Sequence record: PP213477.1
Direction: 5' to 3' (one strand)
From: Escherichia phage vB_Eco_ZCEC08
DNA: 47,926 bases
In this document: piece by piece, positions 8,791 to 47,926 of the stretch
Numbering within the stretch: position 1 is the stretch's first letter
Layout of the letters: every line of letters begins with the position of its first letter
Translations under genes and position numbers: made by a program
The notes under the pieces: generated by a model
What the model was told of the DNA's origin: nothing
Database searches by the model: none
What the model saw: the letters and a program-made list of their open reading frames with translations, nothing else

Positions 8791-9092
8791 TATTTAATCT
8801 CTCCGTTCAGTTCATTAACAATTAACGTTGCATAGCCAGCAATATCTTTCCAGCTGTCATCATAAGTCGGGTCGCCATTCAGAATGCGCCCAATCTTGTG
8901 CTGAATCATGTCGAGCGCCTCGCGTTGACTTGGTGTGAGATTGCGCCAGCCATCTACCTCGCGCATCACATCTTTCAACTCCTGCATAATTTCAGCGCCG
9001 TCTTTGAATTTACCGTATCGACTACCGCGTTCGGTGATGAGTCGCTCTGTTGCGTCAGTATGGCGCTTATCGCCCGTGATTTGTGAACTCAT
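8790..9092 (-). CDS. hypothetical protein (100 aa)
   Basis: ORF track. Confidence 0.5.
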   Translation of the reverse strand: MSSQITGDKRHTDATERLITERGSRYGKFKDGAEIMQELKDVMREVDGWRNLTPSQREALDMIQHKIGRILNGDPTYDDSWKDIAGYATLIVNELNGEIK

Positions 9093-9579
9093 TGTGATGC
9101 ATTCTCCTGAATTCTTTTATTTTTGCTTCTGCTTCTCTTATGTCGGAAAAGTAACCAACTGTGAATCTTTTGCCATTTACTCCAACTCTTGCATGCCACT
9201 TGTTGTGCGATGAACTCCAGTTAACCCCCTTGATACCGCTAGTGTTGTTTTTGTTCATTGCTTTGTTGTGGCTATTCTCAAATTTGCTGGCCTCCCTTAA
9301 ATTGCACGCCCTGTTGTCATTGCGAATGCCATTAATGTGGTCAATCATTTCACTTGCTGGCGCGCCATGAATGCATATCCATGCCAATCTGTGAGCAAGA
9401 AAAGCCCTACCGCAAAGAATTATTTGCACATATCCATCTGGCTTTAAGTAGCCAGCCACACTCCCTTTTTCTGCAATCCTATTCCTTGTCTTTAGCCATT
9501 TAAATTCCCCAGTTAGTGGATTGTAGTAAAGGTAACTCAATATAAACTCCCTACTCGGCTCATCTCTCCTATGCCTCAT
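9067..9579 (-). CDS. HNH homing endonuclease (AP2-domain type), paralogue 1
   Basis: HRLAW..., IDHINGIRNDNRACNLREAS, GVNWSSSHNKWHARV; paralogous to 10322..10861 and 47414..47926. Confidence 0.7.
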   Translation of the reverse strand: MRHRRDEPSREFILSYLYYNPLTGEFKWLKTRNRIAEKGSVAGYLKPDGYVQIILCGRAFLAHRLAWICIHGAPASEMIDHINGIRNDNRACNLREASKFENSHNKAMNKNNTSGIKGVNWSSSHNKWHARVGVNGKRFTVGYFSDIREAEAKIKEFRRMHHNEFTNHGR

Positions 9580-9782
9580 TTCTCATCCTCTTTCATTGTC
9601 ACCCTATTATTCTCGTCAACACTGAAGTTGGCCCGAATCAAATCATACATATCTTCCTTAGGCATATCAGCCAGCGCCACATAGCAACGGGCGAAGTAGC
9701 GAACATCACGGAGTGTCAGCGGTTGTCGCTTCTCCACAATGCTGGTGATAATGCCCATCGGCTCGCGTCGTGGTCTTGGCAT
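9576..9782 (-). CDS. hypothetical protein (68 aa)
   Basis: ORF track; first gene of the minus operon. Confidence 0.45.
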   Translation of the reverse strand: MPRPRREPMGIITSIVEKRQPLTLRDVRYFARCYVALADMPKEDMYDLIRANFSVDENNRVTMKEDEK

Positions 9783-9808
9783 ATTTACTACTCCTTCTCG
9801 AAAAACAT

Positions 9809-9853
9809 CTTGACGTTTCTACATCATTTAGTCAATACTTGTTGACGTAGATT
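9809..9853. promoter_or_regulatory. divergent regulatory region with inverted TCTACATCA / TGACGTAGA motifs
   Basis: CTTGACGTTTCTACATCATTTAGTCAATACTTGTTGACGTAGATTG between divergent genes. Confidence 0.3.
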
Positions 9854-9881
9854 GTACCACAACGGAAAAGGTGATGTGGAA

Positions 9882-10079
9882 ATGCGATACAAAGAAATAG
9901 CAGCGAGATACCAGAAGGAAGTTCGCGAGGTTATGGAAATCCTTAACGTTCGCGAGGATACCATTAAGTTTGTGGAAACCGCCATGTGTTCACTGGCGCT
10001 TGAAGCGGAGGTTGCGGGTCGTGAAAAGGCTGACGAACTTATATCTGCGGTGGTTTATAGTTCAACCAGTAACGGTTGA
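9882..10079 (+). CDS. hypothetical protein
   Basis: internal ATG (residue 11 of ORF 9852..10079) after AAAGGTGA. Confidence 0.45.
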   Translation: MRYKEIAARYQKEVREVMEILNVREDTIKFVETAMCSLALEAEVAGREKADELISAVVYSSTSNG

Positions 10080-10139
10080 AGATGAAGGTTATCTGTGCGT
10101 TGAGCACGTTGTTATCAAATTCTACGGGAGAAATTATAA

Positions 10140-10334
10140 ATGGCGCATGACGAACTGTACGAAGAATCGTTAATCCAGAGGTTGAATGAAGTTGAGCGCA
10201 CTCGCGAATGGCTGGAGTGCGAGTTACGAGAAGTGCGCAACCGCCTGCAACGCAAGCGCAGTCAGCAAAGAGATGTCATCGACTGGTCTGGGGGTACACC
10301 TAAATTTAACAATCTGGGAGAATGGTTGAAATGA
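10140..10334 (+). CDS. hypothetical protein (64 aa)
   Basis: ORF track. Confidence 0.4.
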   Translation: MAHDELYEESLIQRLNEVERTREWLECELREVRNRLQRKRSQQRDVIDWSGGTPKFNNLGEWLK

Positions 10335-10861
10335 GCAACATTAGTCAGGAAAGCATTTTAAAGTTCCTCCAGTATGATGAAAATACAGGAAACTTTCTAT
10401 GGATTGATAATTTCTCAAGAAAATCAAAGAAAGGGAAGGTGGCTGGAGGTATTACATCGCATGGGTATTGGAGAATTCAACTCCCCATCGGGAGGTTTTA
10501 CGCACACAGAATGGCGTGGATTGTTTGCAATGGAGATATACCAAACGGATATGAGATTGATCACATAAATGGGAACAAGAAAGATAATCGCATCAGCAAC
10601 CTAAGATTGGTCACAAGAGGTCAAAATGTTATGAATGTAGGCGTGAAAAACAATAATACAAGCGGAGTTAAGGATGTTGTTTGGGACTCTTCGCGAGAAA
10701 GGTGGGGGGTTCAAATTACAGCCAATGGCAAGCATTATTATGGAGGTAGATTCTCGTCAATAACACAAGCAAAAGAGGAGAGGAACAGGCTCATAAAGAT
10801 GGTTCACGGGAAATTTTTGAATACAAAAGGTGAGCAATATGACACTACTAATGAACGATGA
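10322..10861 (+). CDS. HNH homing endonuclease (AP2-domain type), paralogue 2
   Basis: HRMAW..., IDHINGNKKDNRISNLRLVT, GVKDVVWDSSRERWGVQI. Confidence 0.7.
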   Translation: MVEMSNISQESILKFLQYDENTGNFLWIDNFSRKSKKGKVAGGITSHGYWRIQLPIGRFYAHRMAWIVCNGDIPNGYEIDHINGNKKDNRISNLRLVTRGQNVMNVGVKNNNTSGVKDVVWDSSRERWGVQITANGKHYYGGRFSSITQAKEERNRLIKMVHGKFLNTKGEQYDTTNER

Positions 10862-11075
10862 GAAATTACTTGAATGCCCGTTTTGTGGTTGTGATGACGT
10901 AAGTGTTATTGATGACGGCGAATGGTTGCACGTTGAGTGCGGAGATTGTTTTTGCCGCACTGACTCGTATTGCTGCGCATCCACGGCAATGAAGAAATGG
11001 AACACAAGAGGTGGACACCTCTACACTTCCGACGACTTCAATCAGGCAGCAGAGGAGCGCGATTATGGATTATAA
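10830..11075 (+). CDS. Lar-like restriction alleviation protein (zinc ribbon)
   Basis: N-terminal LLECPFCGCDD...C..C pattern typical of the Lar family; exact start uncertain. Confidence 0.45.
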   Translation: MSNMTLLMNDEKLLECPFCGCDDVSVIDDGEWLHVECGDCFCRTDSYCCASTAMKKWNTRGGHLYTSDDFNQAAEERDYGL

Positions 11076-11553
11076 ATCACAAATCATGCGCGTGATTGTC
11101 AATCATCCAGGGGCAACGCGTGCATATATTGAAAAGCATTGCGGAGGTAAGCATTCAAGCACCACAACGCACCGTTTACATGAGATGCTTGCGCTTGGAT
11201 TCATTCGTCGAGAGAAGTCCGTGATTCGTGGTGGTAAGTGGCAGTATAAGTATTTCATCTCTGAGGATGCAGCAGGTATTGATGATGCGATTAAGTGCCA
11301 TTTGCTTGATAACGCTGGCGCAGAGGTGAAAGAAATCAGTGCAGCCACTGACCTTGATTACCGAATTGTAAAAAGCCGCATCCGCATTATGTTTCATAAC
11401 GGTGATGTGACGCGAAGCTATGACCACCACAAGAAGCTGTGGCGTTACTCATGGAAGGAGCAGGAAGTAAATATGAGCAATCTGTTTAATTCACTTCTTC
11501 GCAGCGCAAGAGGTCATTATGGGAAAAGCGAAACGCAAGAAGCAGGAGTATGA
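11065..11553 (+). CDS. hypothetical protein
   Basis: internal ATG (residue 19 of ORF 11011..11553) overlapping upstream stop. Confidence 0.5.
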   Translation: MDYKSQIMRVIVNHPGATRAYIEKHCGGKHSSTTTHRLHEMLALGFIRREKSVIRGGKWQYKYFISEDAAGIDDAIKCHLLDNAGAEVKEISAATDLDYRIVKSRIRIMFHNGDVTRSYDHHKKLWRYSWKEQEVNMSNLFNSLLRSARGHYGKSETQEAGV

Positions 11554-11678
11554 GCAATTACCGCCATGCAAAATGTCAGGAATGCCGCAACAGGAGGATG
11601 TGATTCTCACCGAAGCTGAGTGGCGCAAGGTGGCGAGGGTGCAAATCATGTTCCGCAAACTTGCTGAGGATGTACTAA

Positions 11679-12083
11679 ATGAGATGGGCTATTAAGCATA
11701 AATCTGGCAGAACTCTGTTTGTGACATCAGATGAGTTTATTGCCAATAACCGTAAAGAGATGGGCTGGATAGTGGAGGAAGTGAAGATGACGAGTAGAGA
11801 GCAGTTTGAAAAAGAAATGAGTGACAAGTATGAGTGGTTCAGTGATGCGATCGCTTGTGCTGATTTTTGCGGTGACGATGATGATGGCTACTATGTTGGC
11901 GGTGATTACCTCTATTATGGGAAGTCATGTTCAGAGGCTTTGTTTTGGTTATGGCGAGGATGGCAGGCATCGCGCGCAGCAATTGAGATTCAAGCGTGTC
12001 CATGTCCAAACGATCATGGCCCGAATGTTGATGACCATTATCGCGAGCAAATTAATAACGCAGGCTTAAAGGTGAAAAAATGA
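11679..12083 (+). CDS. hypothetical protein (134 aa)
   Basis: ORF track. Confidence 0.5.
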   Translation: MRWAIKHKSGRTLFVTSDEFIANNRKEMGWIVEEVKMTSREQFEKEMSDKYEWFSDAIACADFCGDDDDGYYVGGDYLYYGKSCSEALFWLWRGWQASRAAIEIQACPCPNDHGPNVDDHYREQINNAGLKVKK

Positions 12084-12406
12084 TTATCCAGTTAAACGAC
12101 ATCATGAAAGCAGATATCATTCAGCTTGAAGATTATGACATGCAACTGGCGTTTGAAATCGAAACTGTCGAGCGTCAACTGCAGTATGCTGATAAGAAGA
12201 ATGATCGCGTCTGGCACGAGAAAGCACTTAAGGCGCGCGACCACATGAAGCGCACGCGAGCACTCATTAAAACTCGTCTTGATAAGCTATATTTTGGCGA
12301 AGAGCGAATGCTGCATGGCGCTATACTGGCGCAAATCCGCAAGGAAATGCCGATTGGTAAGTTTATGACATACGTTCATCGCGCAAAGCAGGAGGCTGGG
12401 TTATGA
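12080..12406 (+). CDS. hypothetical protein (108 aa)
   Basis: ORF track; ATGA overlap with upstream gene. Confidence 0.5.
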   Translation: MIIQLNDIMKADIIQLEDYDMQLAFEIETVERQLQYADKKNDRVWHEKALKARDHMKRTRALIKTRLDKLYFGEERMLHGAILAQIRKEMPIGKFMTYVHRAKQEAGL

Positions 12407-12516
12407 TGGACTTCCTGAACTGGTTCGCTGACCACTGGATTTTAACTTTATTCTCCTGCTATTTATTATTTGCTGGCCTAGAGGAATTGATTAGAGCATG
12501 GAGGGGGAAGCCATGA
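12403..12516 (+). CDS. small hydrophobic peptide (37 aa)
   Basis: hand-translated MMDFLNWFADHWILTLFSCYLLFAGL...; overlaps upstream stop. Confidence 0.3.
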   Translation: MMDFLNWFADHWILTLFSCYLLFAGLEELIRAWRGKP

Positions 12517-12659
12517 TTCCATTACTGTTGATATTATCAGCCTACGCATTCGCGCGGGTATTTGAGGCCGATACTCTGTACCAGATGATTTGTTATGGCG
12601 CGCTGTTCTGCCTATCAGGTGCTGCGCTTGCATTTATGGATGATGTGATTTCAGAATAA
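12513..12659 (+). CDS. small hydrophobic peptide (48 aa)
   Basis: hand-translated MIPLLLILSAYAFARVF...GALFCLSGAALAF; ATGA overlap. Confidence 0.3.
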   Translation: MIPLLLILSAYAFARVFEADTLYQMICYGALFCLSGAALAFMDDVISE

Positions 12660-12714
12660 CTCCGTATATCTTTTGTTCATCATGGGCTGCTATCATTTAA
12701 TCAGGAGGTAGCCC

Positions 12715-12837
12715 ATGAACATAATCCCTATCACTTACTTTCTCACGCTATACGCACTCACCAATTCGCCATTGTTTGCACTGGCTACCGCCTCGTGGTG
12801 CTATATCTCCCTGTGTTATAATTCGACCACAAACTAA
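12715..12837 (+). CDS. small hydrophobic peptide (40 aa)
   Basis: hand-translated MNIIPITYFLTLYALTNSPLFALATASW...; AGGAGG upstream. Confidence 0.3.
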   Translation: MNIIPITYFLTLYALTNSPLFALATASWCYISLCYNSTTN

Positions 12838-12852
12838 CCGTGGAGCTACGCG

Positions 12853-14606
<1,754 letters not shown>

Positions 14607-14608
14607 TA

Positions 14609-15682
14609 ATGGAAAAGATTATTTTTACCAAAGACCTGGTAGCCAACTCCGCAGTGGTGGCTGACCAGTGGAAACATCTCACCATCGACCGCAAGGTGTT
14701 CTGCAACGCAGAAGCTGAGCTGGCGAAAACTTACGGTGTTAACGCCACTGCACTGGTAACGAAAGATTACTGGCGCGACGTGGATAACGTCACCACCCGC
14801 GTTTTCCGTAACGAAGCTGGTCAGGACATGATGGCCGACCTGATGGGCATCGCGGCAAACATCAATATCGGTAAGACTGTAGCAATCAGCCGCATTGCTT
14901 CCGATGCTGGTAAGGTCGTCCGCACCCTGTCTGGTCAGGAGCCGGAAGATTTGGATAAAACTCGCTACGATTACACTGGCGATGTGATTCCAATCTTCAA
15001 GACTGGCTACAGCCGCGAATGGCGTGAACTGCTGGGTATGCAGTCTGAAGGTTTTGACCCACTGCTGGACGATCAGGCTAACGTTACCTTTAACCTGCGT
15101 TCCGACATGGCGCAGTACCTGCTGACTGGCGACCAGACCCTGAACGTGAACGGCGTTTACACTGGTTACGGTATCACCAACCACCCGAACACTATTCAGG
15201 TTAACCTGAATGCTTCCGGCGGCCTGAATATCGACCTGCAAACCGCAACACCAGATGAAATCGTGACCTTCTTCAATCAGGATTTCCAGGCTATTCTTGA
15301 TGCGCAGAACGTATTTGAGCAGGTGACTCTGTGGGTTTCCCCGGCAGTGCGTCGCAGCTTCATGCGTCCGTATTCTGATGCAGCAGGCTTCAAAGGCGGC
15401 ACAGTTGAGCAGTACATCACGCAGTTCGGCAATGGTCGCATCGGCAAGATTGGCACCAACTTCCTGCTGACTGGTAACCATTTCGTTGGCTATGTTCGCA
15501 ACGACATGTACATCCGTCCGCGTGTTGCTCAGCCTGTCTCCACCTATGCGGCGGCACGTGTCAACCCGCACGATAACTTCAACTTCCTCGTGTGGTCAGC
15601 TTTTGGGCTTCAGGTGAGACGCGATTTTGCAGGGAAGTCAAAAGTGTTTAATGGTTACGGGACGCAAACACCATTGGCTTAA
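14609..15682 (+). CDS. major capsid protein
   Basis: 357 aa; position after scaffold/decoration genes; followed by a strong terminator. Confidence 0.7.
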   Translation: MEKIIFTKDLVANSAVVADQWKHLTIDRKVFCNAEAELAKTYGVNATALVTKDYWRDVDNVTTRVFRNEAGQDMMADLMGIAANINIGKTVAISRIASDAGKVVRTLSGQEPEDLDKTRYDYTGDVIPIFKTGYSREWRELLGMQSEGFDPLLDDQANVTFNLRSDMAQYLLTGDQTLNVNGVYTGYGITNHPNTIQVNLNASGGLNIDLQTATPDEIVTFFNQDFQAILDAQNVFEQVTLWVSPAVRRSFMRPYSDAAGFKGGTVEQYITQFGNGRIGKIGTNFLLTGNHFVGYVRNDMYIRPRVAQPVSTYAAARVNPHDNFNFLVWSAFGLQVRRDFAGKSKVFNGYGTQTPLA

Positions 15683-15689
15683 GATGTAA

Positions 15690-15718
15690 TTTAAAGGGGG
15701 CATCAGCCCCCTTCTTTA
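15690..15718. terminator. bidirectional rho-independent terminator
   Basis: GGGGGC-ATCA-GCCCCC then TTCTTTAT; stop of the convergent minus gene lies in the loop. Confidence 0.5.
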
Positions 15719-16518
15719 TACCTGATTTCACCATACACCATGTATTGCAGCATGTAGCAGAATTCCCATTGCGTCATATCCTTGCGCAGCCACTTTCTGT
15801 TTTTCTTCCAGTTGAACTCTGCCGGCTCAGCTTTGAGGTTATGTAGTGAATTCACCAGCTCTGGGTAGACAAGGTTGTTTTTTACAAACCAGTCCACTGG
15901 AAGTATGTGATCTATATGCCAGCAACTACGGTTATCAAAGCTCATCCATGGCTCCATAGTTGACTCTATGTGTTTTATAAAATCACTTTTTGTATAACCA
16001 AGCACATCATCAACGGTTTTATCAATGACAACGTCGGACAACCTCATATCAATTCTTTCAAGCATCTTCCTTAGGAACACGTGGTGGGGGTGTTTCTTTT
16101 GCCATTGCTTGACGTTATCCAGAGCCTTTTTGTTGCCTTTCTCAGAGTAATACCATTTACGGTACGCATCCCTTCTTCTTCTGAGAAATTCCTCCATCTT
16201 TTTTATGTCTGAGCTTAATCTTTTTTTGTATTTCTTGTGAAACTCCCTATCTCTCTCTTTCTTCATTGCCTTGAATTCTGGATTGTTTTTATTTTTTAAC
16301 CACTCTTCTTTGTTTTTCTGCCTCATCTTTTCTTTGTATTCAGTAGTAGACCTTCTTGCTCTTGTTCTTTCGTATACGCAATGCTTGCATCCTCCTGATG
16401 CTGTAAAAAACACAGTTCCACCGCATACAGAGCATGGAACCCATTCGCATACAAATTGCTTCAATCCAGCAACCCTTGCTTCTTGCGCAGCTTCTTTTCT
16501 TGTCTTCATAAAAGTCAC
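15703..16518 (-). CDS. HNH-like nuclease with N-terminal zinc ribbon
   Basis: CxxC...CxxC at N-terminus, lysine-rich middle, C-terminal WHIDHILP...LHNLKA...N motif. Confidence 0.45.
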   Translation of the reverse strand: MTFMKTRKEAAQEARVAGLKQFVCEWVPCSVCGGTVFFTASGGCKHCVYERTRARRSTTEYKEKMRQKNKEEWLKNKNNPEFKAMKKERDREFHKKYKKRLSSDIKKMEEFLRRRRDAYRKWYYSEKGNKKALDNVKQWQKKHPHHVFLRKMLERIDMRLSDVVIDKTVDDVLGYTKSDFIKHIESTMEPWMSFDNRSCWHIDHILPVDWFVKNNLVYPELVNSLHNLKAEPAEFNWKKNRKWLRKDMTQWEFCYMLQYMVYGEIRYKEGG

Positions 16519-16596
16519 TCCTAATTTGGTTTTATATTACTACAGGTGTAATGAGTGTGCTACAATTAATCAGCATTAACTCACGAGGATATTTAA

Positions 16597-16794: not shown

Positions 16795-16799
16795 ACTGA

Positions 16800-16826
16800 A
16801 CCCGCATTATGCGGGTTTTTTATTTG
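16800..16826 (+). terminator. rho-independent terminator
   Basis: ACCCGCA-TTAT-GCGGGT followed by TTTTTTATTT. Confidence 0.55.
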
Positions 16827-16976: not shown

Positions 16977-16977
16977 G

Positions 16978-17514
16978 CTACAGAAGCATAGGCATAACAA
17001 CAATCTTCGCAGTCTCACCAGATGGCGCATTAAGACAGCAAACTGCGGCATTTGTGTTTCCATTCAGTTCAATTTTGACGCCACAGAATTTAGGATTAAA
17101 CAGCTTCGCCACTTTCTCGATATCCACGAGATAACCAGCATTGAAGCCAATTTTCTCTGCTGCTTTCGTTTCCTTTGGTATAACGCGATCAATATCAGGG
17201 AATCGTCCGTCAATCTCTTCGCAGATACCAGCGCCAACAATCACACCAGCTTCATCATAATACGTTGCAATTTTCGACTTTGTATCAATGATGGCGTAGT
17301 CATAGCGTTTTGTTGGTGACTTGCCAATCTTGATAATCACATTTTCTGTCAGCTTATTGTCATGGCTTCCGCCAATGAATGCGCGATGACCGTCAGTTGA
17401 TGCAATGCGACCATCAGGCATAAAGCAGATGCCATTCAGGTAGTAGCGCACATCATTGCGCGCCTGAAATATTAATGCTGACTCAAGTAATAGTTTGCTT
17501 ATTTTTAGTTTCAT
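16978..17514 (-). CDS. DNA polymerase III beta-clamp (DnaN) single-domain homologue
   Basis: motifs TDGHRAF, FPDIDRVIP and C-terminal VVMPMLL resemble the DnaN C-terminal domain (TDGHRLA, FPDY.RV.P, MPMRL); only about 179 aa. Confidence 0.5.
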   Translation of the reverse strand: MKLKISKLLLESALIFQARNDVRYYLNGICFMPDGRIASTDGHRAFIGGSHDNKLTENVIIKIGKSPTKRYDYAIIDTKSKIATYYDEAGVIVGAGICEEIDGRFPDIDRVIPKETKAAEKIGFNAGYLVDIEKVAKLFNPKFCGVKIELNGNTNAAVCCLNAPSGETAKIVVMPMLL

Positions 17515-17687
17515 CACTTCACCTTAATCATATGCTGTTTTGCAACCTTCAGGCACTCTTCGAAAATGCCTCCCTTCTTAGCGCTCTGATTGCGCTTGTA
17601 ATACTGAATCGCCGCATCAATTGCCATCTGGTCAATGTCAGGCAGCTTGTTGCGAAGTTGTTTTTCAATGAATTGTTCTGGTGTCAT
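17514..17687 (-). CDS. small hypothetical protein (57 aa)
   Basis: hand-translated MTPEQFIEKQLRNKLPDIDQMAIDAAIQYYKRNQ...; couples methyltransferase and clamp-like genes. Confidence 0.3.
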   Translation of the reverse strand: MTPEQFIEKQLRNKLPDIDQMAIDAAIQYYKRNQSAKKGGIFEECLKVAKQHMIKVK

Positions 17688-19293: not shown

Positions 19294-19294
19294 A

Positions 19295-34421: not shown

Positions 34422-34910
34422 TCAGAACGGAATGTCGTCGTCGAAGTCCATCGGAGGCTCGTTGCCTCCTTGTGGGCTTTGTTGTTTTGGTGGCTGCTGT
34501 TGCTGTCGTTGCGGTTGCTGCCCTGATTGCTGGCGTGGTTGCTGACCAGAATCGTCACGTTTACCACCAAGCATCTGCATGACGCCGCCAATCTGCGGAA
34601 TGACAATCTCAGTGGTGTATTTGTCCACACCGTTGCTGTCAGTCCACTTACGAGTGCGCAGTTGGCCTTCGATATAAACCTGCGAGCCTTTGCGAAGGTA
34701 TTCTCCTGCAACTTCCGCAAGTTTTCCAAAGATGACCACGCGATGCCATTCAGTCTGTTCTTTCTTTTCTCCTGTCTGCTTATCTTTCCATTGCTCAGAT
34801 GTTGCAACAGAAAGGTTGGCAATTGAAGAGCCTGATGCTGAATATTTAACTTCAGGGTCGTTACCAACTCGACCAAGGATTATGCACTTATTAATACCAA
34901 TCGAAGACAT
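34422..34910 (-). CDS. ssb: single-stranded DNA-binding protein
   Basis: OB-fold N-terminus, Gln/Pro-rich linker and acidic tail ending DDDIPF. Confidence 0.9.
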
Positions 34911-35428
34911 TACTTGAATCTCCCGTTTTTATCTCTTAATCTGCCATTATGATTCTCTGTGGCGTGTAATGATGCGTGCTCTGACTTCGTCATAAGCATT
35001 AGGTTACTTGGATGGTTGTTTGTTTTATCATGGTCTATATGATGAACGCATTCATTGTGAAACAACCTCCTCCCAATAATGCCTTCCATAACTACGACAT
35101 GCTCTCCTCTTCCTTTGTTTTCACCCATAGTTATCTCGACATAACCATTCGGTTTTACAGAGCGACCCTTGCCAACTCCTTTCTTTGATTTTGATATATT
35201 TTGCTTCCATTCTTCAGTAAACTTTCGTTTTTTACCCCTAAGTCCTGAACCAAGTCTTCCCTCTGCGGCAGCAATTCTTATTGCATCTCCTCTGCTTCTC
35301 AATATTCCGGCTTTCTTAAATCTAAACCTCAATGTTGACATGGCTATTCCTGTTTCATTGGAGATTTGAGGGATGCTCATGCCAGACAAATACATATCAA
35401 ACTCATTCATATGCACCTCCTTGTGCAA
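34910..35428 (-). CDS. HNH homing endonuclease
   Basis: C-terminal [23 protein letters not shown]; N-terminal helix-turn-helix-like region. Confidence 0.7.
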
Positions 35429-37487: not shown

Positions 37488-37489
37488 AG

Positions 37490-37771
37490 TTATTTGCCTA
37501 ACGCTTTGTTGATTGCTGTAATCGCTTGATTATGTGCGTCACGAGAAATACCATTATTTACCCATCCTAGACATGCTTGCAAAGCACTCAAGAGTTCTGG
37601 GGCGGCGGCTATGAGGTATGCATTGTGCCACTGCTCATCTTTATCCCCGTTATATGTTGGCGTGCTGGCAATATCAACTCCACCATCAGCTACAATATCA
37701 GGCGAATTGTCATCACCAACCACTACTCTCCACGCACCTTTAGTACCTTTGAATTCGTTACTCATCTTCAT
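37490..37771 (-). CDS. Ead/Ea22-like family protein
   Basis: IAAAPELLSALQ...INKALGK shared with 6013..6264. Confidence 0.5.
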   Translation of the reverse strand: MKMSNEFKGTKGAWRVVVGDDNSPDIVADGGVDIASTPTYNGDKDEQWHNAYLIAAAPELLSALQACLGWVNNGISRDAHNQAITAINKALGK

Positions 37772-37803
37772 TACCTCACTTGTTATTGTCAGTTGAATCT
37801 ACA

Positions 37804-38229
37804 TCAATCTACATCGAAAGGCAAGCCAAAATAGAAAAGCGTGGCTTTTTTTAGTTCATCAAGACCATAAGCGATGGCAGCATAATGACCAAGCCTGCAC
37901 ATCTCTGTTAGCACTGCTGATTGATCCTTGCTCACCCTGCTTTTGCTTTTATCGCGGCGCTTTGCTTCAATCATCCCACAACTGTGATTTACCCCCGGAG
38001 TCATTATCACATTGTCGCCTATACCAGCCTTAACCCCCATCTTCTGGCGCTTCAATACAAACTGGACGCGGCTGGATGTTCCTGTTTCATTCGGGACGTG
38101 AAACCAGAGCACATCAGGGAAACGGTGTTGCATCCATGTTCCATAACCCATCTGGTCAGTCTCCTCTTTTGGGCATTCTCCTCGATAACCGCTATCAAAT
38201 ACCCATATACCGCTATCAAGCTGCTTCAC
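37804..38229 (-). CDS. VRR-NUC domain nuclease
   Basis: FHVPNETG...MGVKAGIGDNVIM...IEAKRRD...SKDQ pattern. Confidence 0.6.
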   Translation of the reverse strand: MKQLDSGIWVFDSGYRGECPKEETDQMGYGTWMQHRFPDVLWFHVPNETGTSSRVQFVLKRQKMGVKAGIGDNVIMTPGVNHSCGMIEAKRRDKSKSRVSKDQSAVLTEMCRLGHYAAIAYGLDELKKATLFYFGLPFDVD

Positions 38230-38239
38230 TTTGTTATCC

Positions 38240-40144: not shown

Positions 40145-40401
40145 ATCCTCGCACCAAGACGTTCAATTGTTTGTTTCTTTGTTTCATCATCTATTCCGCT
40201 ATAAAAATACATATAACTAAGATTCCATAGATAATCTTCTGGTCGCTCATCGGCAAACAAATCATCCCACTCAAAAATCCATTCTCCAGTTCTCTGTCTT
40301 CTGTATATGGTTAGCCATGTATTGCTTCGTGGCGGGTATCCGAAGGCAACAGGGATTGGCTTGCCATGAAAAATCCTCTTAAAAATGCTATCAAGGAACA
40401 C
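40138..40401 (-). CDS. hypothetical protein (87 aa)
   Basis: ORF track; start overlaps helicase start region. Confidence 0.45.
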   Translation of the reverse strand: MFLDSIFKRIFHGKPIPVAFGYPPRSNTWLTIYRRQRTGEWIFEWDDLFADERPEDYLWNLSYMYFYSGIDDETKKQTIERLGARIW

Positions 40402-40416
40402 TGCTATATCCTTTTA

Positions 40417-40446
40417 TTGATGTTTCTACGTCAGTTAGCTTATACT
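40417..40446 (+). promoter_or_regulatory. sigma70-like promoter (TTGATG - 18 nt - TATACT) with TCTAC motifs
   Basis: hexamers read directly; about 30 nt upstream of primase ATG. Confidence 0.4.
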
Positions 40447-40476
40447 CAATCTACACCAACAATCAAGGGTCAATTT

Positions 40477-41430: not shown

Positions 41431-41432
41431 AA

Positions 41433-41458
41433 TAAACCCTCCATCTGGAGGGTTTTTG
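41433..41458. terminator. bidirectional rho-independent terminator
   Basis: ACCCTCCA-TCTG-GAGGGT then TTTTGTT. Confidence 0.55.
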
Positions 41459-41875
41459 TTATTCTTTGAACTCTGGCGCTTCAGTCCAGAAAGCTACATT
41501 TCGCAGCGACTTACCAGTGTGATTGCACCAGTATATTCCTGAGTCGTCATACCTGGCAGTAACCTTGACGCGATCAGCATCAATAATAACAACCTCCTGT
41601 CCATCTTTAGGGTCGAAAAGACGCGCATCTTTCCAGTTGGCAATCTCATTAAAGGAAAGAAGAATATAGCCGGGAAGATAATCTCCGACATCATCGATGT
41701 GATCTATGGCTCTCTCCGTTCTCTCTCCTGTGTAGCCTCCATTCCACTCATAAAGAATGATAGTGTCTCCAACCTTAAAATCACGGCCCTTCTTTATTAT
41801 TTCAGCTTTCTTGTGCCCGGTAACTACAGGCCAGAAGTGCTCAGGTAAAATTTTAAGTTCGTGTGTTTTGCTCAT
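41459..41875 (-). CDS. ASCH-like / DUF3850-like protein
   Basis: THELKILPEHFWPVVTGHKKAEIIKKGRDFKVGDTIILYEW pattern. Confidence 0.45.
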   Translation of the reverse strand: MSKTHELKILPEHFWPVVTGHKKAEIIKKGRDFKVGDTIILYEWNGGYTGERTERAIDHIDDVGDYLPGYILLSFNEIANWKDARLFDPKDGQEVVIIDADRVKVTARYDDSGIYWCNHTGKSLRNVAFWTEAPEFKE

Positions 41876-43467
41876 TTCAAACCCCTCATAAATCTCATGC
41901 GCTTAACAGCAGCAGAAAGATAATTTCTAACCGTTGAGTTCATTCGCAGACCATCCCATGAGCCATCACCGCACATCTTTATAGCTCTTGGGTTATCCCT
42001 GTCCAGCATTAGTGGTGAATGCTTATTTTCCTCAATAGCAAGAAGAACCTCATAAACAAACTTATCAGGTGTTAGTGTGATGTTATTAGAGTCAGCAGAA
42101 TTGATTATCTTTTTAATTCTATCACGACACAGCTTGTTCTTTATAACAGACAAGTAAGGCGTTTTAATGAATGCCTGTGATTCACAAATTCGCTTAATTT
42201 TTTCTACAATGTTCTCCCATTCAGTATTTTCAAGTCCATCAAACTCCTGTTCGCCCTCAAGGAATCTTTGCAGACCAGCGAGATGCTCAAGAACTACGAT
42301 ATATCCCCATTCGACATGCTCCATCGTAACTGCTGGCGTCATTCCACGGCGACTTGACAGATCTGCGTAAGCCGCAAGCGTTGCAAGGTCTACAATCATT
42401 AGCCCCATGCGCGGGATAACGTCACCAACAACACCATCGCGATCACCAAGCTCACTTTCCAGTTTCATAGACAGAGATCTGTGCAGTTTTTTCACATCAT
42501 CATCAGCCCATACAGCGTTAGTTTTCGCGGTAAGAATCCTACCCTTCCACTCATTGATTATTTTTCTTGAAAGTGTGCCGCTAGCTTCCACATCCTTCAT
42601 CGCTGGCATTTCCTCACCAGCAAGATGTCCAAGCTGAAACAGCACTCGCCCCATGCCGCCATCTTTCTGCCATGAACGCGCAGCATCTATTCCCTGCTCT
42701 GGAGTGACAGTAATCAGCGGAACAAATTTTGCGTTTTCAATTCCACCGTCTTTTGTTGCAAGTTCGTACTCATTCATTGCCGACTTGAGCGCGCGCCCAA
42801 CGCTGTGGTCCATCATCGCAAGGCGCTTATAATCTATGACGCCTTTCCCATCATCACCACCAGTAAGTGGCACTATCCATCCCTCAGCACTTGCTGCCGC
42901 CATGATGCGTTTTGGGTTTTGTTCCCAAGTAAGGTTTTCAAGCAGCTCCTTGATTATTGGTCTGTTAGGCACCCACACGCCGCCATCAGTGAGGCCTCTA
43001 TACCACGCCATAGTACCGCCAAGATATGCATTGCGCGGGTTGTTCCAGTCTTCAAGATGTTGTTTGTCATCGTTCACAACGTAGAGCAAAGAACCACCTC
43101 CAGCAATCAGGTCTAACTGCATCTGTTTCGTCGAGGTTGATTTAGATGCGCAAACTCTGGAGCCAATTCCCAGTGCATTGGAATATGCCCTAACGAAACT
43201 CACAGGGGCACCCTTACCTGCACCAGAGCGAGCCACCAGAAATATACCAGTATTGCAGATACTACCTGTTGGACCAATCAAATATCGTCCAGCCATCGCC
43301 TGAGTAAGACCCAAGGCACCAGTTAAGCGATATCTCTCCCCATCATTACGGCGCTCAAAGTTTTTCGCAATCTCATCCATAAACTCACCAAGTGCACCAG
43401 GAGCCTTCCTGTTTATACCCATAGCCATAGAATCAAAATCAATAGCGCCCATCAATATACTCTCCAT
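41872..43467 (-). CDS. hypothetical replication-module protein (531 aa)
   Basis: ORF track; degenerate P-loop-like LVARSGAGKGA; function not recognised. Confidence 0.5.
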   Translation of the reverse strand: MESILMGAIDFDSMAMGINRKAPGALGEFMDEIAKNFERRNDGERYRLTGALGLTQAMAGRYLIGPTGSICNTGIFLVARSGAGKGAPVSFVRAYSNALGIGSRVCASKSTSTKQMQLDLIAGGGSLLYVVNDDKQHLEDWNNPRNAYLGGTMAWYRGLTDGGVWVPNRPIIKELLENLTWEQNPKRIMAAASAEGWIVPLTGGDDGKGVIDYKRLAMMDHSVGRALKSAMNEYELATKDGGIENAKFVPLITVTPEQGIDAARSWQKDGGMGRVLFQLGHLAGEEMPAMKDVEASGTLSRKIINEWKGRILTAKTNAVWADDDVKKLHRSLSMKLESELGDRDGVVGDVIPRMGLMIVDLATLAAYADLSSRRGMTPAVTMEHVEWGYIVVLEHLAGLQRFLEGEQEFDGLENTEWENIVEKIKRICESQAFIKTPYLSVIKNKLCRDRIKKIINSADSNNITLTPDKFVYEVLLAIEENKHSPLMLDRDNPRAIKMCGDGSWDGLRMNSTVRNYLSAAVKRMRFMRGLK

Positions 43468-43781
43468 ACTCGCAAGAATTTGCCAGGGATAATACCTTGT
43501 TTCACCGTTAACACAGCGCCAACCCTGTCCGCCTCAATTTTTAGCGCCTTCTGAAGTGACGTCATTGTCATCTGAAAACCTCGCTCTATATCGTATGCGT
43601 AGCACCCATCTCTTCTACCAATCAAAATTGAAGTTGAATACCCGTTCTCAAAGTAAAACTGACACCCATCAGGAGCGGTAAGATTATTTATCACGTCGTG
43701 AGCAAGCGATGTCGTTACAGGGAATATAGGCGCGCAACTCATACCTACCTCACTCAACTCGCTTAATGTGCAAAACTTCAT
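43452..43781 (-). CDS. hypothetical protein
   Basis: ORF track. Confidence 0.4.
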   Translation of the reverse strand: MKFCTLSELSEVGMSCAPIFPVTTSLAHDVINNLTAPDGCQFYFENGYSTSILIGRRDGCYAYDIERGFQMTMTSLQKALKIEADRVGAVLTVKQGIIPGKFLRVWRVY

Positions 43782-43980
43782 CGAAATATGAGCACGTTCT
43801 GAATTTCATCCCAAAATCCTCACCAACCCTTCCGAGACACGCGCGAAATCTTTCAACAGACAGACCTTTATATGCAATGTCCTCATAAGCAATCGAATTA
43901 ACCTGACCAACATCCATATGTTTTGCAACGCGATACACAAACTCCATCTTTGAACCATCACGATACATTTTGTTTCTCAT
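43750..43980 (-). CDS. hypothetical protein (first gene of the replication operon)
   Basis: ORF track 43750..44013; start moved to the ATG that follows GGAGGT. Confidence 0.4.
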   Translation of the reverse strand: MRNKMYRDGSKMEFVYRVAKHMDVGQVNSIAYEDIAYKGLSVERFRACLGRVGEDFGMKFRTCSYFDEVLHIKRVE

Positions 43981-44013
43981 AGTAACCTCCATCTGAATTC
44001 CAGCAGTAACCAT

Positions 44014-44635
44014 AGATAAAAAATAAAATTAACGCAACACAAAACAGGTCTAACCAGCAACAATAGCTACCACACTTAATAACTGGTCAGACCACCATCC
44101 CGTATCTGATATATGTGGATGGCGCCTGTCGTTCAATTTGAACTCGATTTTTACCTAATTTACCGTATATTTATCGGTCGGTTTTTTGCATAAATAATTG
44201 ATTTATAGTATTTTACCTGTTTTACCGTAACTCTAAGGAGTATTTTCATCATTAAGAGTGGTAGTATATTAATTGGTCTAATTTTAAAGAAATCTAATAA
44301 AATCAATATATTAATATAAAAGAATAGCTTACTTACTTCTATAGTATTTACCTGGTAAAACCGGTAACTCCTCCGAAGGCCGCGTCATTACTGGATTCAT
44401 TTTTACCGCCTGTAGGTAAATACAGTAGTTTTCAATCCGTTATTGCTCTTCTAAGCTGTTGATTACCGGTACTTTATTTGGGAAACCGGCATTTACCGGT
44501 TTTTGTGGTGTGATTAATAATCGAGCAACTGGTCCTGTTTCACCAGAACCAACTAATGCGACGCCTGAAAATCATGTTGACGTAGAATCATCATTGATGT
44601 AGATTGAACTAATCGAAACAAACGAGGGTGAAGAG
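44014..44635. repeat. AT-rich non-coding region with iteron-like TTTACC(G) repeats and ACCGGT palindromes; candidate origin
   Basis: direct TTTACC copies near 44148, 44159, 44211, 44221, 44347, 44401; inverted copy near 44415; ACCGGT near 44360, 44465, 44495; no ORF of 60 aa or more. Confidence 0.35.
44577..44605 (+). promoter_or_regulatory. sigma70-like promoter TTGACG-17-TAGATT
   Basis: hexamers read directly; about 30 nt upstream of the ATG at 44636. Confidence 0.45.
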
Positions 44636-44782
44636 ATGAAAATCAAAGACCGAGAAGAATTTGAAGATGCTCAGGCTATGGCGCGCATTGCAGTTGAGCG
44701 CACAAATAACAGTATACCTGCCGACGCATTCTGGAACGCAGCAATGCAGGCGTTAATCTCAGCATATGGCTTAAGCAAATGA
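44636..44782 (+). CDS. small hypothetical protein (48 aa)
   Basis: hand-translated MKIKDREEFEDAQAMARIAVERTNNSIPADAFW...; GAGGGTGAAGAG upstream. Confidence 0.4.
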   Translation: MKIKDREEFEDAQAMARIAVERTNNSIPADAFWNAAMQALISAYGLSK

Positions 44783-44874
44783 CAGGCGCATCATTCGAAC
44801 TTATCGCCAGTCTGGTTATCGTGGCATTCGTCATTATCGCAGTGGCAGTTTCAAAATCAGGGTATAAGGAGTAG
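44779..44874 (+). CDS. small hydrophobic peptide (31 aa)
   Basis: hand-translated MTGASFELIASLVIVAFVIIAVAVSKSGYKE; ATGA overlap. Confidence 0.3.
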   Translation: MTGASFELIASLVIVAFVIIAVAVSKSGYKE

Positions 44875-44962
44875 AAAAATGAGCAACTGGCATAACGAAC
44901 ACATCATGCAGTGGTTTCGCCGTCGCATTAAGTCAATTACTAACTCTTATGAGGTTTAACAA

Positions 44963-45145
44963 ATGGCAAAGACTATATATCGTCGCGAGAAGCTGGAACC
45001 TGAACTCGGTCACGTTGGCGCGCAGAACTTTATGAGCAAGCAGGCACGCAATGCAATGGAATCTATCCGAGTGAATCGCGTTGTGCGCGTGTTTAATGGT
45101 GAAGGCAAGCGAAGAGTAATGGATGAGCTGATTATCGTGTTCTGA
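44963..45145 (+). CDS. hypothetical protein (60 aa)
   Basis: ORF track. Confidence 0.4.
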   Translation: MAKTIYRREKLEPELGHVGAQNFMSKQARNAMESIRVNRVVRVFNGEGKRRVMDELIIVF

Positions 45146-45181
45146 CCTCGATTCAGGTGACTTATTTTTAATGGTGATGAT

Positions 45182-45409
45182 ATGGCAAAAGTGAAAACAT
45201 ACGAGTTCTGGCTTGCACAGAACAAAATGTATGCAAGCAAGGAAATCAAGAGAGCACGCTGGTGGAATAAATTGTTAATCCTGTCCGGCTGCATAGTGCT
45301 GGCAAAGTGCAAATTCAAAGCGATTGACATCACCGATGAGGATGCGCTCACAATCGCAAAGATTGAGTTTGAAGAAGATGGATATCACGAAGAAATTATT
45401 GGGGGTTAG
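45182..45409 (+). CDS. hypothetical protein (75 aa)
   Basis: ORF track. Confidence 0.45.
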   Translation: MAKVKTYEFWLAQNKMYASKEIKRARWWNKLLILSGCIVLAKCKFKAIDITDEDALTIAKIEFEEDGYHEEIIGG

Positions 45410-45412
45410 GGT

Positions 45413-45766
45413 ATGAGTGAAGTTAATTACCAGGCACTGCGTGGGATAGCAAAACAAGCAACACAAGGCGAATGGGTCGCATTTATTTCGCAGGGTACTG
45501 GTACGTATGCGGTGCATACGCCAGGTGATAAACGATGTGAAGACATTATCAAATGGACCGGCTTTGATGGACAGAAAAACGCAAAGAACAACGCTCGTTA
45601 TATCGCAGCTTTAAACCCAGCAGTGGTTCAGGCACTACTGGATGAACTGGAAGCTCAAAGTAAACGCATTGCAGAACTGGAGTCTGCATTAAATCGCCAT
45701 TATGAGATCCCTGACGTTTATGATATGGCGATAAAGCAATTCGAAAGCCTGGCTAAAAGTGAATAG
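45413..45766 (+). CDS. Ead/Ea22-like family protein (third paralogue)
   Basis: ARYIAALNPAVVQALLDELEAQSKRIAELE matches the Ea22-type IAA..P..V.ALLD.LEA motif. Confidence 0.5.
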   Translation: MSEVNYQALRGIAKQATQGEWVAFISQGTGTYAVHTPGDKRCEDIIKWTGFDGQKNAKNNARYIAALNPAVVQALLDELEAQSKRIAELESALNRHYEIPDVYDMAIKQFESLAKSE

Positions 45767-45829
45767 CTACCCGTTCATATTAATTATCAGTGCGCTCTAT
45801 GTGGCGCACGCTTTAGTGGAGGCATACTC

Positions 45830-45937
45830 ATGAACAACCACAAACGACGCCGATACACCACTGGCGCTAAAATCTTCCTTGCTGTTTATGTGCTGGCCCT
45901 GGTGGCAGCCATTGCAGGAGTTGTGCATTATGTTTAA
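45830..45937 (+). CDS. small hydrophobic peptide (35 aa)
   Basis: hand-translated MNNHKRRRYTTGAKIFLAVYVLALVAAIAGVVHYV; GGAGG upstream. Confidence 0.3.
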   Translation: MNNHKRRRYTTGAKIFLAVYVLALVAAIAGVVHYV

Positions 45938-46109
45938 CGATATCAGCGACGCAATGCAGAACATGTGGGAACGCTACTGGAACAGCATGAAGACATGTCA
46001 CTACATGATGGTACAGATAGGTAGTTACATTGAGGTTGTTCCTGACAATGGTGTGCACGACATTAAGTACATGTGCTCAACGAGGGATTATGCTAATGCA
46101 AACCACTAA
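45930..46109 (+). CDS. hypothetical protein
   Basis: internal ATG (residue 18 of ORF 45879..46109) overlapping upstream stop. Confidence 0.35.
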   Translation: MFNDISDAMQNMWERYWNSMKTCHYMMVQIGSYIEVVPDNGVHDIKYMCSTRDYANANH

Positions 46110-46263
46110 ACAGAAAGTCTGGCAACTCGCAAAGCAGCACGAATTAGACGATTTCATCGAGAAGGTTGCAAAGACATTCCCTGACGCGCTTGAAGTCGTT
46201 CATGTGCAGACGCGAAATGAAAATGCATGGTGCTACACAAAAAATCATACAAATGGTAGATGA
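46096..46263 (+). CDS. hypothetical protein
   Basis: internal ATG (residue 23 of ORF 46030..46263). Confidence 0.35.
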   Translation: MQTTKQKVWQLAKQHELDDFIEKVAKTFPDALEVVHVQTRNENAWCYTKNHTNGR

Positions 46264-46264
46264 A

Positions 46265-46690
46265 ATGAAGCTAACAAAAAAACAACGCGAAGAGCTACGC
46301 ATGAAGTTCGGTGGTCGCTGTGCTTATTGTGGGTGTGAGCTACCCGAGAAAGGTTGGCATGCAGACCATGTTGAACCAGTGCTACGTAAATCTGAGCAGT
46401 GCATGAAGGCAGCGGCGAAAGGGATTTTCAAGCTGAAGGCAACCGGTGAGCTATATCGACCAGAAGCCGAGCGACTGGAAAACCTTTACCCTGCGTGCGC
46501 CCCCTGCAATCTGATGAAAACTTCCTATTCCCTGGAAATGTTCAGGAAGCAGGTATCTCTTCAGGTTGCTCGTGGGCGCAAAAGCAGCATGAATTTCCGC
46601 ACTGCAGAGCGTTTCGGTCTTATCGCCGTGGTGGAGAGACCAGTTGTTTTCTGGTTTGAGAAATACCAGGAAGAGAACGAAAAAAAATAA
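46265..46690 (+). CDS. HNH endonuclease (start uncertain, ORF track 46166..46690)
   Basis: CAYCGCEL...WHADHVEPV...NLYPACAPCNLMK. Confidence 0.6.
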   Translation: MKLTKKQREELRMKFGGRCAYCGCELPEKGWHADHVEPVLRKSEQCMKAAAKGIFKLKATGELYRPEAERLENLYPACAPCNLMKTSYSLEMFRKQVSLQVARGRKSSMNFRTAERFGLIAVVERPVVFWFEKYQEENEKK

Positions 46691-46777
46691 ATGTGTTTAT
46701 GATGCTCTGTTGGCAAGCGCGATAATGATGGTGTACAATAAACGCATAACCACCATTGCTTTCACTTATATCATCAC

Positions 46778-46810
46778 CCAACCTTTAACCCGCCTTGTGC
46801 GGGTTCTTTT
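46778..46810 (+). terminator. rho-independent terminator
   Basis: CCCGC-CTTGT-GCGGG followed by TTCTTTTTT. Confidence 0.5.
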
Positions 46811-46870
46811 TTATCTACGTCTATGTGTTAAAATTAGCGTATGTGAGTTACTTAAAGAACACAAAAAGAC

Positions 46871-47311
46871 ATGGCGAATCCAAATCCAAAACACAAGTTT
46901 TCCTCTACAAATCAACCGCCTCCGCGCGGTAAGAGTTATCGCACAGTGCTGCTTGAGGCGCTTCGTGCTGCAAATACACCGATGAATGAGATTGAATTCG
47001 TCACGTATTACATCAATAGGGCCATGACATGCGAAGACGCTCAGGCAACTGGTATGCTTCGAGAGATATTCCTGCGGCTCAACCCAATTCCTAAGCCTGT
47101 AGCTCCTCCTGTGGAGTTTGACTTCCCTGCTGACGGAACTCCGGTTCAGAAAATGGATGCAATCATCAAGGGTGTCTCCACTGGCGTCGTGCCTGCTGAC
47201 ATCGGCAAGATGATGGCTGACATTATCAAGTCTGGCCTTGATATTCAGGAAACCACCGAACTCGCAGCGCGACTTGAGCGACTGGAGAAATTGCTGGAAC
47301 AGCAACAGTAA
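46871..47311 (+). CDS. putative terminase small subunit
   Basis: 146 aa upstream of terL around the circle, separated only by an HNH gene; assignment by position and size only. Confidence 0.35.
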   Translation: MANPNPKHKFSSTNQPPPRGKSYRTVLLEALRAANTPMNEIEFVTYYINRAMTCEDAQATGMLREIFLRLNPIPKPVAPPVEFDFPADGTPVQKMDAIIKGVSTGVVPADIGKMMADIIKSGLDIQETTELAARLERLEKLLEQQQ

Positions 47312-47413
47312 CTGATTTATAATAATTAATGCGGCAAAGGGTAGCTCCCTGCCCGGATTGGTCTCCGGGCTGCCGCATCCATCCAGTGACCGCCTTTAAC
47401 CGAGGATTCAATA

Positions 47414-47926
47414 ATGCGACCCTTAAAAGAAGAAAAACTCACGCAAGACAGGCTAAAAGAGTTGCTGCATTATAACCATGATACTGGTATTTTCACATGG
47501 GTTCAGCGCGCCTCAAAAAGCGTAAGAGTTGGTAATTCAGCTGGCAGTAAGAATAAGTCAGGCTATATAGATATACGCATCGATAAGTCTTTACACAAAG
47601 CTCATCGGCTTGCGTGGCTTTACATTTATGGTGTGTGGCCCAATGGGAAAATAGATCACATCAATAACGTGAAGACAGATAACAGAATCTGCAACCTGAG
47701 AGAAGCAAGCAATAATGAAAACGGATGGAATGCTGGTAAACCATCGACAAATACGTCAGGAGTAAAAGGTGTGAGTTGGGATGCAGAGAAAAATAAATGG
47801 AAGGCGCATTGCAGGGTTTTTGGGAAAAAATATACAGTAGGTAGGTTTTCATCAAAAGAATATGCTGAGAGAGCCGTGGCGGAGTTCAGAGAGAAACATC
47901 ACGGGGAGTTTTTTAATCATGGCTAG
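47414..47926 (+). CDS. HNH homing endonuclease (AP2-domain type), paralogue 3
   Basis: HRLAW..., IDHINNVKTDNRICNLREAS, GVSWDAEKNKWKAHCRV; stop lies inside the repeated ATGGCTAG that also starts terL. Confidence 0.7.
   Translation: MRPLKEEKLTQDRLKELLHYNHDTGIFTWVQRASKSVRVGNSAGSKNKSGYIDIRIDKSLHKAHRLAWLYIYGVWPNGKIDHINNVKTDNRICNLREASNNENGWNAGKPSTNTSGVKGVSWDAEKNKWKAHCRVFGKKYTVGRFSSKEYAERAVAEFREKHHGEFFNHG

Follow-up and report, generated by a model that had tools for sequence, protein, structure and literature searches.

HNH-type endonuclease genes as likely homing-type cassettes in the genome of Escherichia phage vB_Eco_ZCEC08

HNH-type genes and their families

The sequence record PP213477.1 of Escherichia phage vB_Eco_ZCEC08 is a complete Skatevirus-like siphophage genome of 47,926 bp, opened at the start codon of the large terminase gene terL, and we refer to this whole stretch as the window. 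An original prediction had claimed at least six HNH endonuclease genes in it, and the six open reading frames (ORFs) that it listed, labelled A to F below, were all found where it had placed them. From comparison of sequences we consider it likely that the six are free-standing homing-type endonuclease cassettes that were acquired independently at six sites of the genome. This reading draws on four kinds of direct observation: the domains assigned to the genes, their polymorphic presence among relatives, the boundaries of the insertions and the covariation of alleles. Six whole-genome relatives, 88-95% identical to the window, were compared: Salmonella phage vB_SenS_ST1UNAM and E. coli phage HC6 are the nearest, each with about 94.5% identity across the alignable 83-86% of the window, and LPST10, KFS-SE2, Bas77 and IME207 follow with 88-90%. 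According to the International Committee on Taxonomy of Viruses, LPST10 and KFS-SE2 belong to the genus Skatevirus and IME207 to Shuimuvirus; no genus is given in the record of Bas77, which its authors group with Skatevirus. The genes are as follows.

9067-9579, minus strand: HNH A, 170 amino acids; HNH_3 with AP2-like C-terminal domain; Pfam HNH_3 42.1 bits, 6.8e-11
10322-10861, plus strand: HNH B, HNH_3 type, paralogous to A and C; Pfam HNH_3 71.8 bits, 3.6e-20
47414-47926, plus strand: HNH C, I-HmuI-like HNH_3 with AP2-like domain; Pfam HNH_3 51.1 bits, 1e-13
34910-35428, minus strand: HNH D, HNH_3 with N-terminal helix-turn-helix-like region; Pfam HNH_3 39.0 bits, 6e-10
46236-46698, plus strand: E cassette, carrying HNH E (46265-46690), PF01844-type with two CxxC pairs
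15703-16518, minus strand: nuclease F, N-terminal four-cysteine zinc ribbon, helical 15-amino-acid repeats and C-terminal WHIDH...N...N HNH-like domain

Five of the six ORFs pass curated Pfam thresholds, four of them as HNH_3 (PF13392, gathering cut-off 24.8 bits) and E as PF01844, and for these five the claimed HNH assignment is upheld. No NCBIfam assignment over the cut-offs was obtained, single-sequence searches of the PDB with C, E and F gave nothing useful, and hidden Markov models (HMMs) of these families found no additional members in the six-frame translation of the window. A, B and C match phrog_99 at about 1e-60 (3.2e-64 for A). Their mutual similarity, noted earlier from shared motifs, is borne out by alignment, with a pairwise identity of 38.5-43.5%, and the three appear to be old paralogues rather than recent duplicates. 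A, B, C and D all retain full length and the full IDHIN...DNR..NLR...N motif. Among 14 such proteins of this phage and its relatives, from which we built a profile (A3), D81, N84, N90, N94 and N103 are invariant, and the catalytic His is lost in some relatives. The His of IDHIN is replaced by Arg or Tyr (IDRIN, IDYIN) in three paralogues, two of KFS-SE2 (6664-7158 and 41987-42463) and one of HC6 (37498-38061), which suggests that these copies are inactive.

Profile A3 matches the structure of the homing endonuclease I-HmuI (PDB 1U3E_M) with an E-value of 1.8e-5 over profile positions 29-104, and it also matches AP2/ERF structures (WRI1, 7WQ5, 2.7e-4; TEM1, 7ET4, 4e-3). A to D thus resemble I-HmuI in their HNH_3 domain. 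Instead of the C-terminal modules of I-HmuI, A, B and C have a DNA-binding domain of AP2-like type at this end, and I-HmuI, unlike these genes, is intron-encoded; A to D are predicted nucleases. HNH-AP2 homing endonucleases of phages and cyanobacteria were reportedly proposed by Magnani et al. in 2004 as ancestors of the plant AP2/ERF factors. Our genes share with them the order of an HNH followed by an AP2-like domain, and many database homologues of B carry precomputed PF00847 and PF13392 assignments. Unlike in those enzymes, the Pfam AP2 cut-off (PF00847, 33.3 bits) is not reached by the single proteins, with 23.0 bits for A, 22.1 bits for C and no detection in B. The earlier designation of A, B and C as AP2-type paralogues therefore holds for the family and not for the proteins taken one by one.

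Overlapping start and stop codons join A, B, C and D to their operons. The start of A shares ATGA with the stop of the ORF upstream. B probably starts at the ATG at 10331, overlapping the upstream stop, and D probably at the ATG at 35410, which is preceded by its own promoter-like site (TTGACT-17-TATATT) and an AGGAGG ribosome-binding site. The stop of D overlaps the start of ssb by 1 nt, and D adjoins the ssb start in every case, in Klebsiella phages too (99% identity).

E scores 26.1 bits against PF01844 (cut-off 21.4) as a whole, with no single stretch passing alone. CAYCG, WHADH, N73 and CAPCN..K, which make up the [CxxC]2, H-x-D-H, N and N-x2-K motifs, are invariant among 9 E homologues. 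In PHROGs, E matches phrog_2118 (6.6e-58) and two families named 'endonuclease VII' (phrog_1035, 5.3e-9; phrog_2914, 8e-8).

The assignment of F is less direct. F, with a probable start at the ATG at 16512, has no match in Pfam or NCBIfam, and in this respect the prediction of a sixth HNH gene found no curated profile behind it. What stands in its favour is a match to phrog_1035 (5.4e-25) and the motif W-H-I-D-H...N...N...N-x2-K, in which D202, H203, N222, N226 and N235 are invariant among 80 diverse homologues and W199 and H200 nearly so. Members of the F family also give sub-threshold matches to HNH_4 (3 of 15) and PF01844 (3 of 10), and hhalign superposes the F motif on the HNH motif of E (probability 42%, E-value 2.6e-4). 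In the AF2 model built from the 80 sequences (pLDDT 94.9) the motif lies on a strand-strand-helix element, formed by strands 199-203 and 227-231 and helix 232-238. The top Foldseek matches of this model are Cas9 HNH domains, all non-significant (best E-value 0.086). An earlier AF2 model from 15 sequences (pLDDT 72.6) was discarded, its Foldseek matches being noise. Taken together, the motif, the profile comparisons and the model make it likely that F is a divergent HNH-like nuclease. A search with the F-family profile returned 12,462 cluster representatives at E<=1e-10 and 32,713 at E<=1e-3, and F homologues are annotated 'hypothetical' in all phage records among the matches listed. Across the family (homologues P0138-P0284) we observed a conserved N-terminal zinc ribbon, GLKRYFTGKPCKxGH...C..C, and between the ribbon and the nuclease domain tandem 15-amino-acid repeats ([YW]-x3-N-K-E...) in about 1 to 11 copies.

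Insertion polymorphism among relatives

For each of the six genes, some close relatives carry it and others lack it cleanly. Genes kept at the same loci in all relatives would have spoken against recent mobility; the synteny comparison instead gave insertion polymorphisms with sharp boundaries for all six. A, which lies in a variable region, has a 99% identical orthologue only in ST1UNAM among the six relatives and in EcoIv28_Lewi in the phage database, and KFS-SE2 carries in the same spot an HNH gene that is 40% identical. B has no orthologue in the six relatives or in 50,697 phage records (best full-length match 44%); a 95% identical orthologue occupies the same locus in one metagenome contig (L012), and none of the six relatives aligns to the region of B (10339-10983). 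Among the six, HC6 alone has D. The D cassette measures 594 bp in the window compared with 14 bp in ST1UNAM, and copies at 99-100% identity are limited to HC6, 6947, HC8A and the Klebsiella phages BUCT541 and KlebP_265. F is a self-contained cassette, convergent to the major capsid gene and with its own promoter-like and terminator elements; its site spans 923 bp in the window and 47 bp in HC6. A 97% identical copy of F is present in phage 64795_sal3, and copies at 58-77% are present in about a dozen records including ST1UNAM (77%), the only one of the six relatives with F. Depending on the gene, between 0 and about 27 of some 190 related records in the phage database contain an orthologue.

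The E cassette gives the clearest view of an insertion event. Compared with LPST10, IME207 and KFS-SE2 the window differs here by a clean indel of about 464 bp, and the cassette sits 10 codons ahead of the stop of a small conserved ORF (46096-46263), which it splits. The original 3' end of this ORF is still present, displaced, beyond E, and this identifies the event as an insertion. E is present in three of the six relatives (HC6, ST1UNAM and Bas77) and has no copy in LPST10, KFS-SE2, IME207, Seszw_1 or swi2; only 8 phage records contain copies at an identity of at least 99%. The interval that separates the E cassette from the candidate small terminase gene contains, at 46710-46805, a promoter-like sequence (TTGGCA-18-TACAAT), conserved in LPST10, with a terminator-like hairpin and T run about 50 nt further on.

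Two sites hold divergent HNH alleles depending on the phage, namely the A site (KFS-SE2) and the C site (IME207). With six HNH genes the window has the highest count of the seven genomes compared, the relatives having 2-4, and about a dozen distinct HNH sites are occupied across the group according to the relatives' annotation tables and our HMM scan. In Skunavirus phages 1-8 HNH genes per genome have been published, a range that covers six (PMC12724721). A block around E, the candidate small terminase gene, C and terL matches HC6 and ST1UNAM at 100% identity compared with 94.5% genome-wide, and against Bas77 E with the candidate small terminase gene reaches 99-100% compared with 90% genome-wide; this high-identity block fits a recent exchange of segments. 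The repeated homing-endonuclease invasion suggested by the original prediction is thus well supported by the clean presence and absence, the rare orthologues, the divergent alleles at two sites and the splitting of an ORF by E.

Further observations were made at other sites of the group. IME207 holds at 44685-44987 a truncated HNH_3 remnant of about 100 amino acids (E-value 2.7e-10), annotated as hypothetical and consistent with decay of a former endonuclease gene. HC6 and Bas77 have an HNH_3 gene between an exonuclease VIII-like gene and the next downstream gene of that strand, a homologue of window 37804-38229; at this place the window (37488-37762), as well as ST1UNAM, has a 93-amino-acid ORF without HNH signal. 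Apart from the HNH genes, a 3.1-kb block of the replication module (41470-44571) aligns to Bas77 only among the six relatives, which shows module-level mosaicism separate from them.

The terminase junction

Gene C lies at the junction of the terminase genes, where E is followed in turn by the candidate terS, C and terL. The features of this junction other than the E cassette are listed here.

46871-47311, plus strand: candidate small terminase subunit (terS), 146 amino acids; named from its position directly upstream of terL and its coiled-coil C-terminus
47305-47926, plus strand: C cassette, intergenic hairpin region and HNH C (47414-47926)
1-1425, plus strand: terL, Pfam Terminase_3, 6.4e-36

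The candidate terS has no Pfam family, and its PHROG match, phrog_9747, has no assigned function. Folding of the hairpin upstream of C is not significantly better than that of shuffled sequence (z -1.57). The stop codon of C (TAG) falls within the first three codons of terL, and the first 8 nt of the window equal its last 8 nt (ATGGCTAG). The ST1UNAM record carries the same duplication at its ends. The contiguous records of LPST10, HC6, IME207 and KFS-SE2 show a simple overlap of exactly 8 nt between the HNH stop and the terL start; the duplication is therefore an effect of linearisation, the gene overlap noted earlier is real, and we rejected a biological terminal repeat. As a separate observation on record ends, that of KFS-SE2 repeats about 1.4 kb (1-1460 and 47150-48608, capsid gene to resolvase), which probably arose as an artefact when a circularly permuted genome was assembled.

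In the window and in five further genomes the terS-terL slot is occupied by an HNH gene, the stop of which overlaps terL by 8 nt in every case. Orthologues of C are 100% identical in HC6 and ST1UNAM, 93% in KFS-SE2 and 92% in LPST10, and 27 phage records have one at an identity of at least 60%. There is no copy in Bas77, Seszw_1 or swi2, whose TerL proteins are 95-96% (Bas77 and Seszw_1, the latter 96%) and 62% (swi2) identical to that of the window. Compared with the genomes lacking the HNH gene, the C cassette replaces 150 bp (a 52-amino-acid ORF) in Bas77 and nothing in Seszw_1; an ORF of about 50 amino acids lies between the candidate terS and terL in both Bas77 and swi2. Seszw_1 is a viable relative that has no HNH gene on either side of the candidate terS, which there overlaps terL directly by 11 nt. 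In IME207 the slot holds an HNH allele that is 44% identical and has the upstream intergenic region, the last 25 nt or so and the terL allele in common with C. Between C and this allele the flanks are 80-100% identical and the gene interior 40-60%.

The presence of the HNH gene goes together with the 5' end of terL. Within the first 27 nt of terL there are 8 differences between genomes with and without the HNH gene, the allele being ATGGCTAGAAAAAGACTCTCAAGTGTGGCA in the former and ATGGCTCGTAAACGACTCTCCGCGCTGGCA in the latter, and the HNH-less junction of Seszw_1 and Bas77 includes CTGGAGCAGCAGAATGGCTCGTAAACGCCTATCCGCGCTGGCA. In IMG/VR, which we scanned by exact pattern, the 'AGA' allele occurred in 10 contigs and the 'CGT' allele in 9, 7 of the latter having 1.6 kb of upstream sequence. 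An HNH_3 ORF abuts terL in all 10 AGA contigs and in none of these 7 CGT contigs. Such covariation is the pattern expected of a protected homing site at which the carrier sequence would have been recoded. Two side observations concern this region in other sequences. In one IMG/VR contig (L022) a second HNH_3 ORF precedes the candidate terS, close to the position of E in the window. In Salmonella phage Segz_1 (5273-7697) terL is annotated with 840 amino acids, and the window TerL aligns only from residue 88, about 1.3 kb past the annotated start; an intein, an insertion or a fusion at the N-terminus could account for this.

Homing and the alternative explanations

The mechanism that we propose is modelled on I-HmuI and other phage HNH homing enzymes, and it is by analogy with these that we infer nuclease activity, target sites and homing for the six genes. 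During co-infection with a cassette-less relative, the enzyme would nick or cut the empty site, and recombinational repair would copy the cassette and flanking markers from the carrier genome, which would be protected by a sequence difference at its own site. In the case of C, the terS-terL junction would be the empty site, the cassette having landed exactly between both genes. It would keep the overlapping stop and start, so that terL translation stays coupled, and would travel with the recoded 5' end of terL (8 differences in 27 nt).

Several points weigh against this reading. Presence/absence polymorphism could also arise by ordinary recombination or deletion. The ST1UNAM copy of F diverges more than its flanks, unlike a recent transfer, and the evidence by which F is probably placed in the HNH superfamily is sub-threshold or indirect throughout. 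The covariation at the 5' end of terL includes two amino-acid changes, S8/V9 in genomes with the HNH gene and A8/L9 in those without, and because of this a functional link between TerL and the HNH protein is still conceivable. Finally, E could be a structure-specific recombination nuclease carried as a moron, since E-type proteins share 78-80% identity with genes that are common across Salmonella chromosomes, and a copy is called NinG in one source.

The last point extends to an explanation in which E, F or both are structure-specific recombination nucleases like endonuclease VII or Rap/NinG, debranching replicating DNA as accessory enzymes and not acting as site-specific homing endonucleases. 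Besides the NinG name and the Salmonella homologues of E, the matches of both proteins to PHROGs named 'endonuclease VII' agree with it, as do the moron-like promoter and terminator elements of F. Both proteins also share with T4 endonuclease VII (gp49) the D-H...N...N layout of a His-Me finger. PHROG names are not tested functions, however, and neither E nor F has a match to Pfam Endonuclease_7 (PF02945) or NinG at E<=0.01; F differs from T4 endonuclease VII also by its additional zinc ribbon and 15-amino-acid helical repeats. In relatives, the homologue of window 16978-17517 is annotated as a RusA-like resolvase, though Pfam finds nothing for the window ORF. E, moreover, is a precise 464-bp insertion damaging a conserved small ORF, as is typical of an invader. 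We therefore regard this explanation as unlikely.

It is a still smaller chance, which we would not put beyond a speculative one, that the terS-terL slot is not purely selfish and houses a co-adapted HNH-TerL pair, the nuclease having been drawn into terminase expression or cleavage. This is suggested because alleles only 44% identical share the slot, the 8-nt overlap and the S8/V9 N-terminus of TerL. With the same reserve, and separately, F may represent a very large unannotated family of zinc ribbon, variable 15-amino-acid helical repeats and HNN nuclease, in which the repeat array might set DNA specificity or reach.

A role in packaging proper, at which the original prediction had hinted for the HNH gene next to the terminase, is not supported. 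C, or E upstream of the candidate terS, would in that case be a component of the packaging machine that aids cleavage of concatemers by TerL, like gp74 of HK97, the GVE2 HNH protein and HrdP of Skunavirus. The gene order would suit such a role, gp74 being placed upstream of terS in HK97 likewise. Also in keeping with it are the 8-nt overlap of C and terL, conserved across genera, the terL N-terminal allele that co-varies with the HNH gene, and the character of E as a small PF01844-type HNH protein that has a [CxxC]2 zinc site and whose gene neighbours the terminase genes, as in the known packaging HNH proteins (PMC12967558, PMC5304195). However, those proteins are kept in every member of their lineage (89 of 89 Skunavirus genomes; PMC12724721), and for phage sk1 HrdP has been reported as essential (PMC12967558). 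C and E are not conserved in this way: Seszw_1 lacks both with a TerL 96% identical, C is absent from Bas77 and swi2 and E from LPST10, KFS-SE2 and IME207, and about half of the IMG/VR contigs with this terL have no HNH gene within 1.6 kb upstream. C also belongs to another HNH subfamily, being of the I-HmuI-like HNH_3 type rather than of the small PF01844 type of gp74 and GVE2, and, set against the packaging-HNH systems, the TerL of this phage is a Terminase_3 protein. For E, a true gp74-like function was rejected in view of its clean insertion, its absence from LPST10, KFS-SE2, IME207, Seszw_1 and swi2 and its homologues in unrelated contexts, E-type relatives being found in replication or nin-type regions of unrelated phages. 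We thus consider a packaging role very improbable. Since Seszw_1 has no HNH gene around the candidate terS, C behaves as a homing endonuclease and not as a packaging factor of the gp74 or HrdP type. The packaging mechanism of the relative seszw is stated as unknown (PMC9825161), and the main text of the genome-reduction paper on that phage does not mention HNH genes.

That the six genes are decayed relics, or weapons between phages acting by marker exclusion without copying, and in either case not homing at present, is hardly credible: catalytic His is lost in the KFS-SE2 and HC6 paralogues, a truncated remnant exists in IME207 and marker exclusion by such enzymes is reported in Skunavirus (PMC12724721), but A to D are complete in length and motif, E and F keep all invariant residues, and 99-100% identical copies within genomes otherwise about 90% identical point to recent spread.

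Independent acquisition of homing-type cassettes, as we read the six genes, has a close parallel in the lactococcal Skunavirus work, where the same HNH pattern is seen: I-HmuI-like HNH endonucleases that are free-standing, without an intron, vary in number and position among close relatives and have alleles clustering by insertion site (PMC12724721). The present case illustrates a known phenomenon clearly and is otherwise ordinary, it leaves the understanding of these elements unchanged, and its value is mainly for annotation and comparative genomics. F is identified as a probable HNH-like nuclease of a very large family. An HNH gene touching terL is not automatically a packaging factor, and for C a concrete homing site is predicted at the terS-terL junction. 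Together the six genes provide a counterpart, in a phage of Gram-negative bacteria, to the recently described HNH landscape of Skunavirus.

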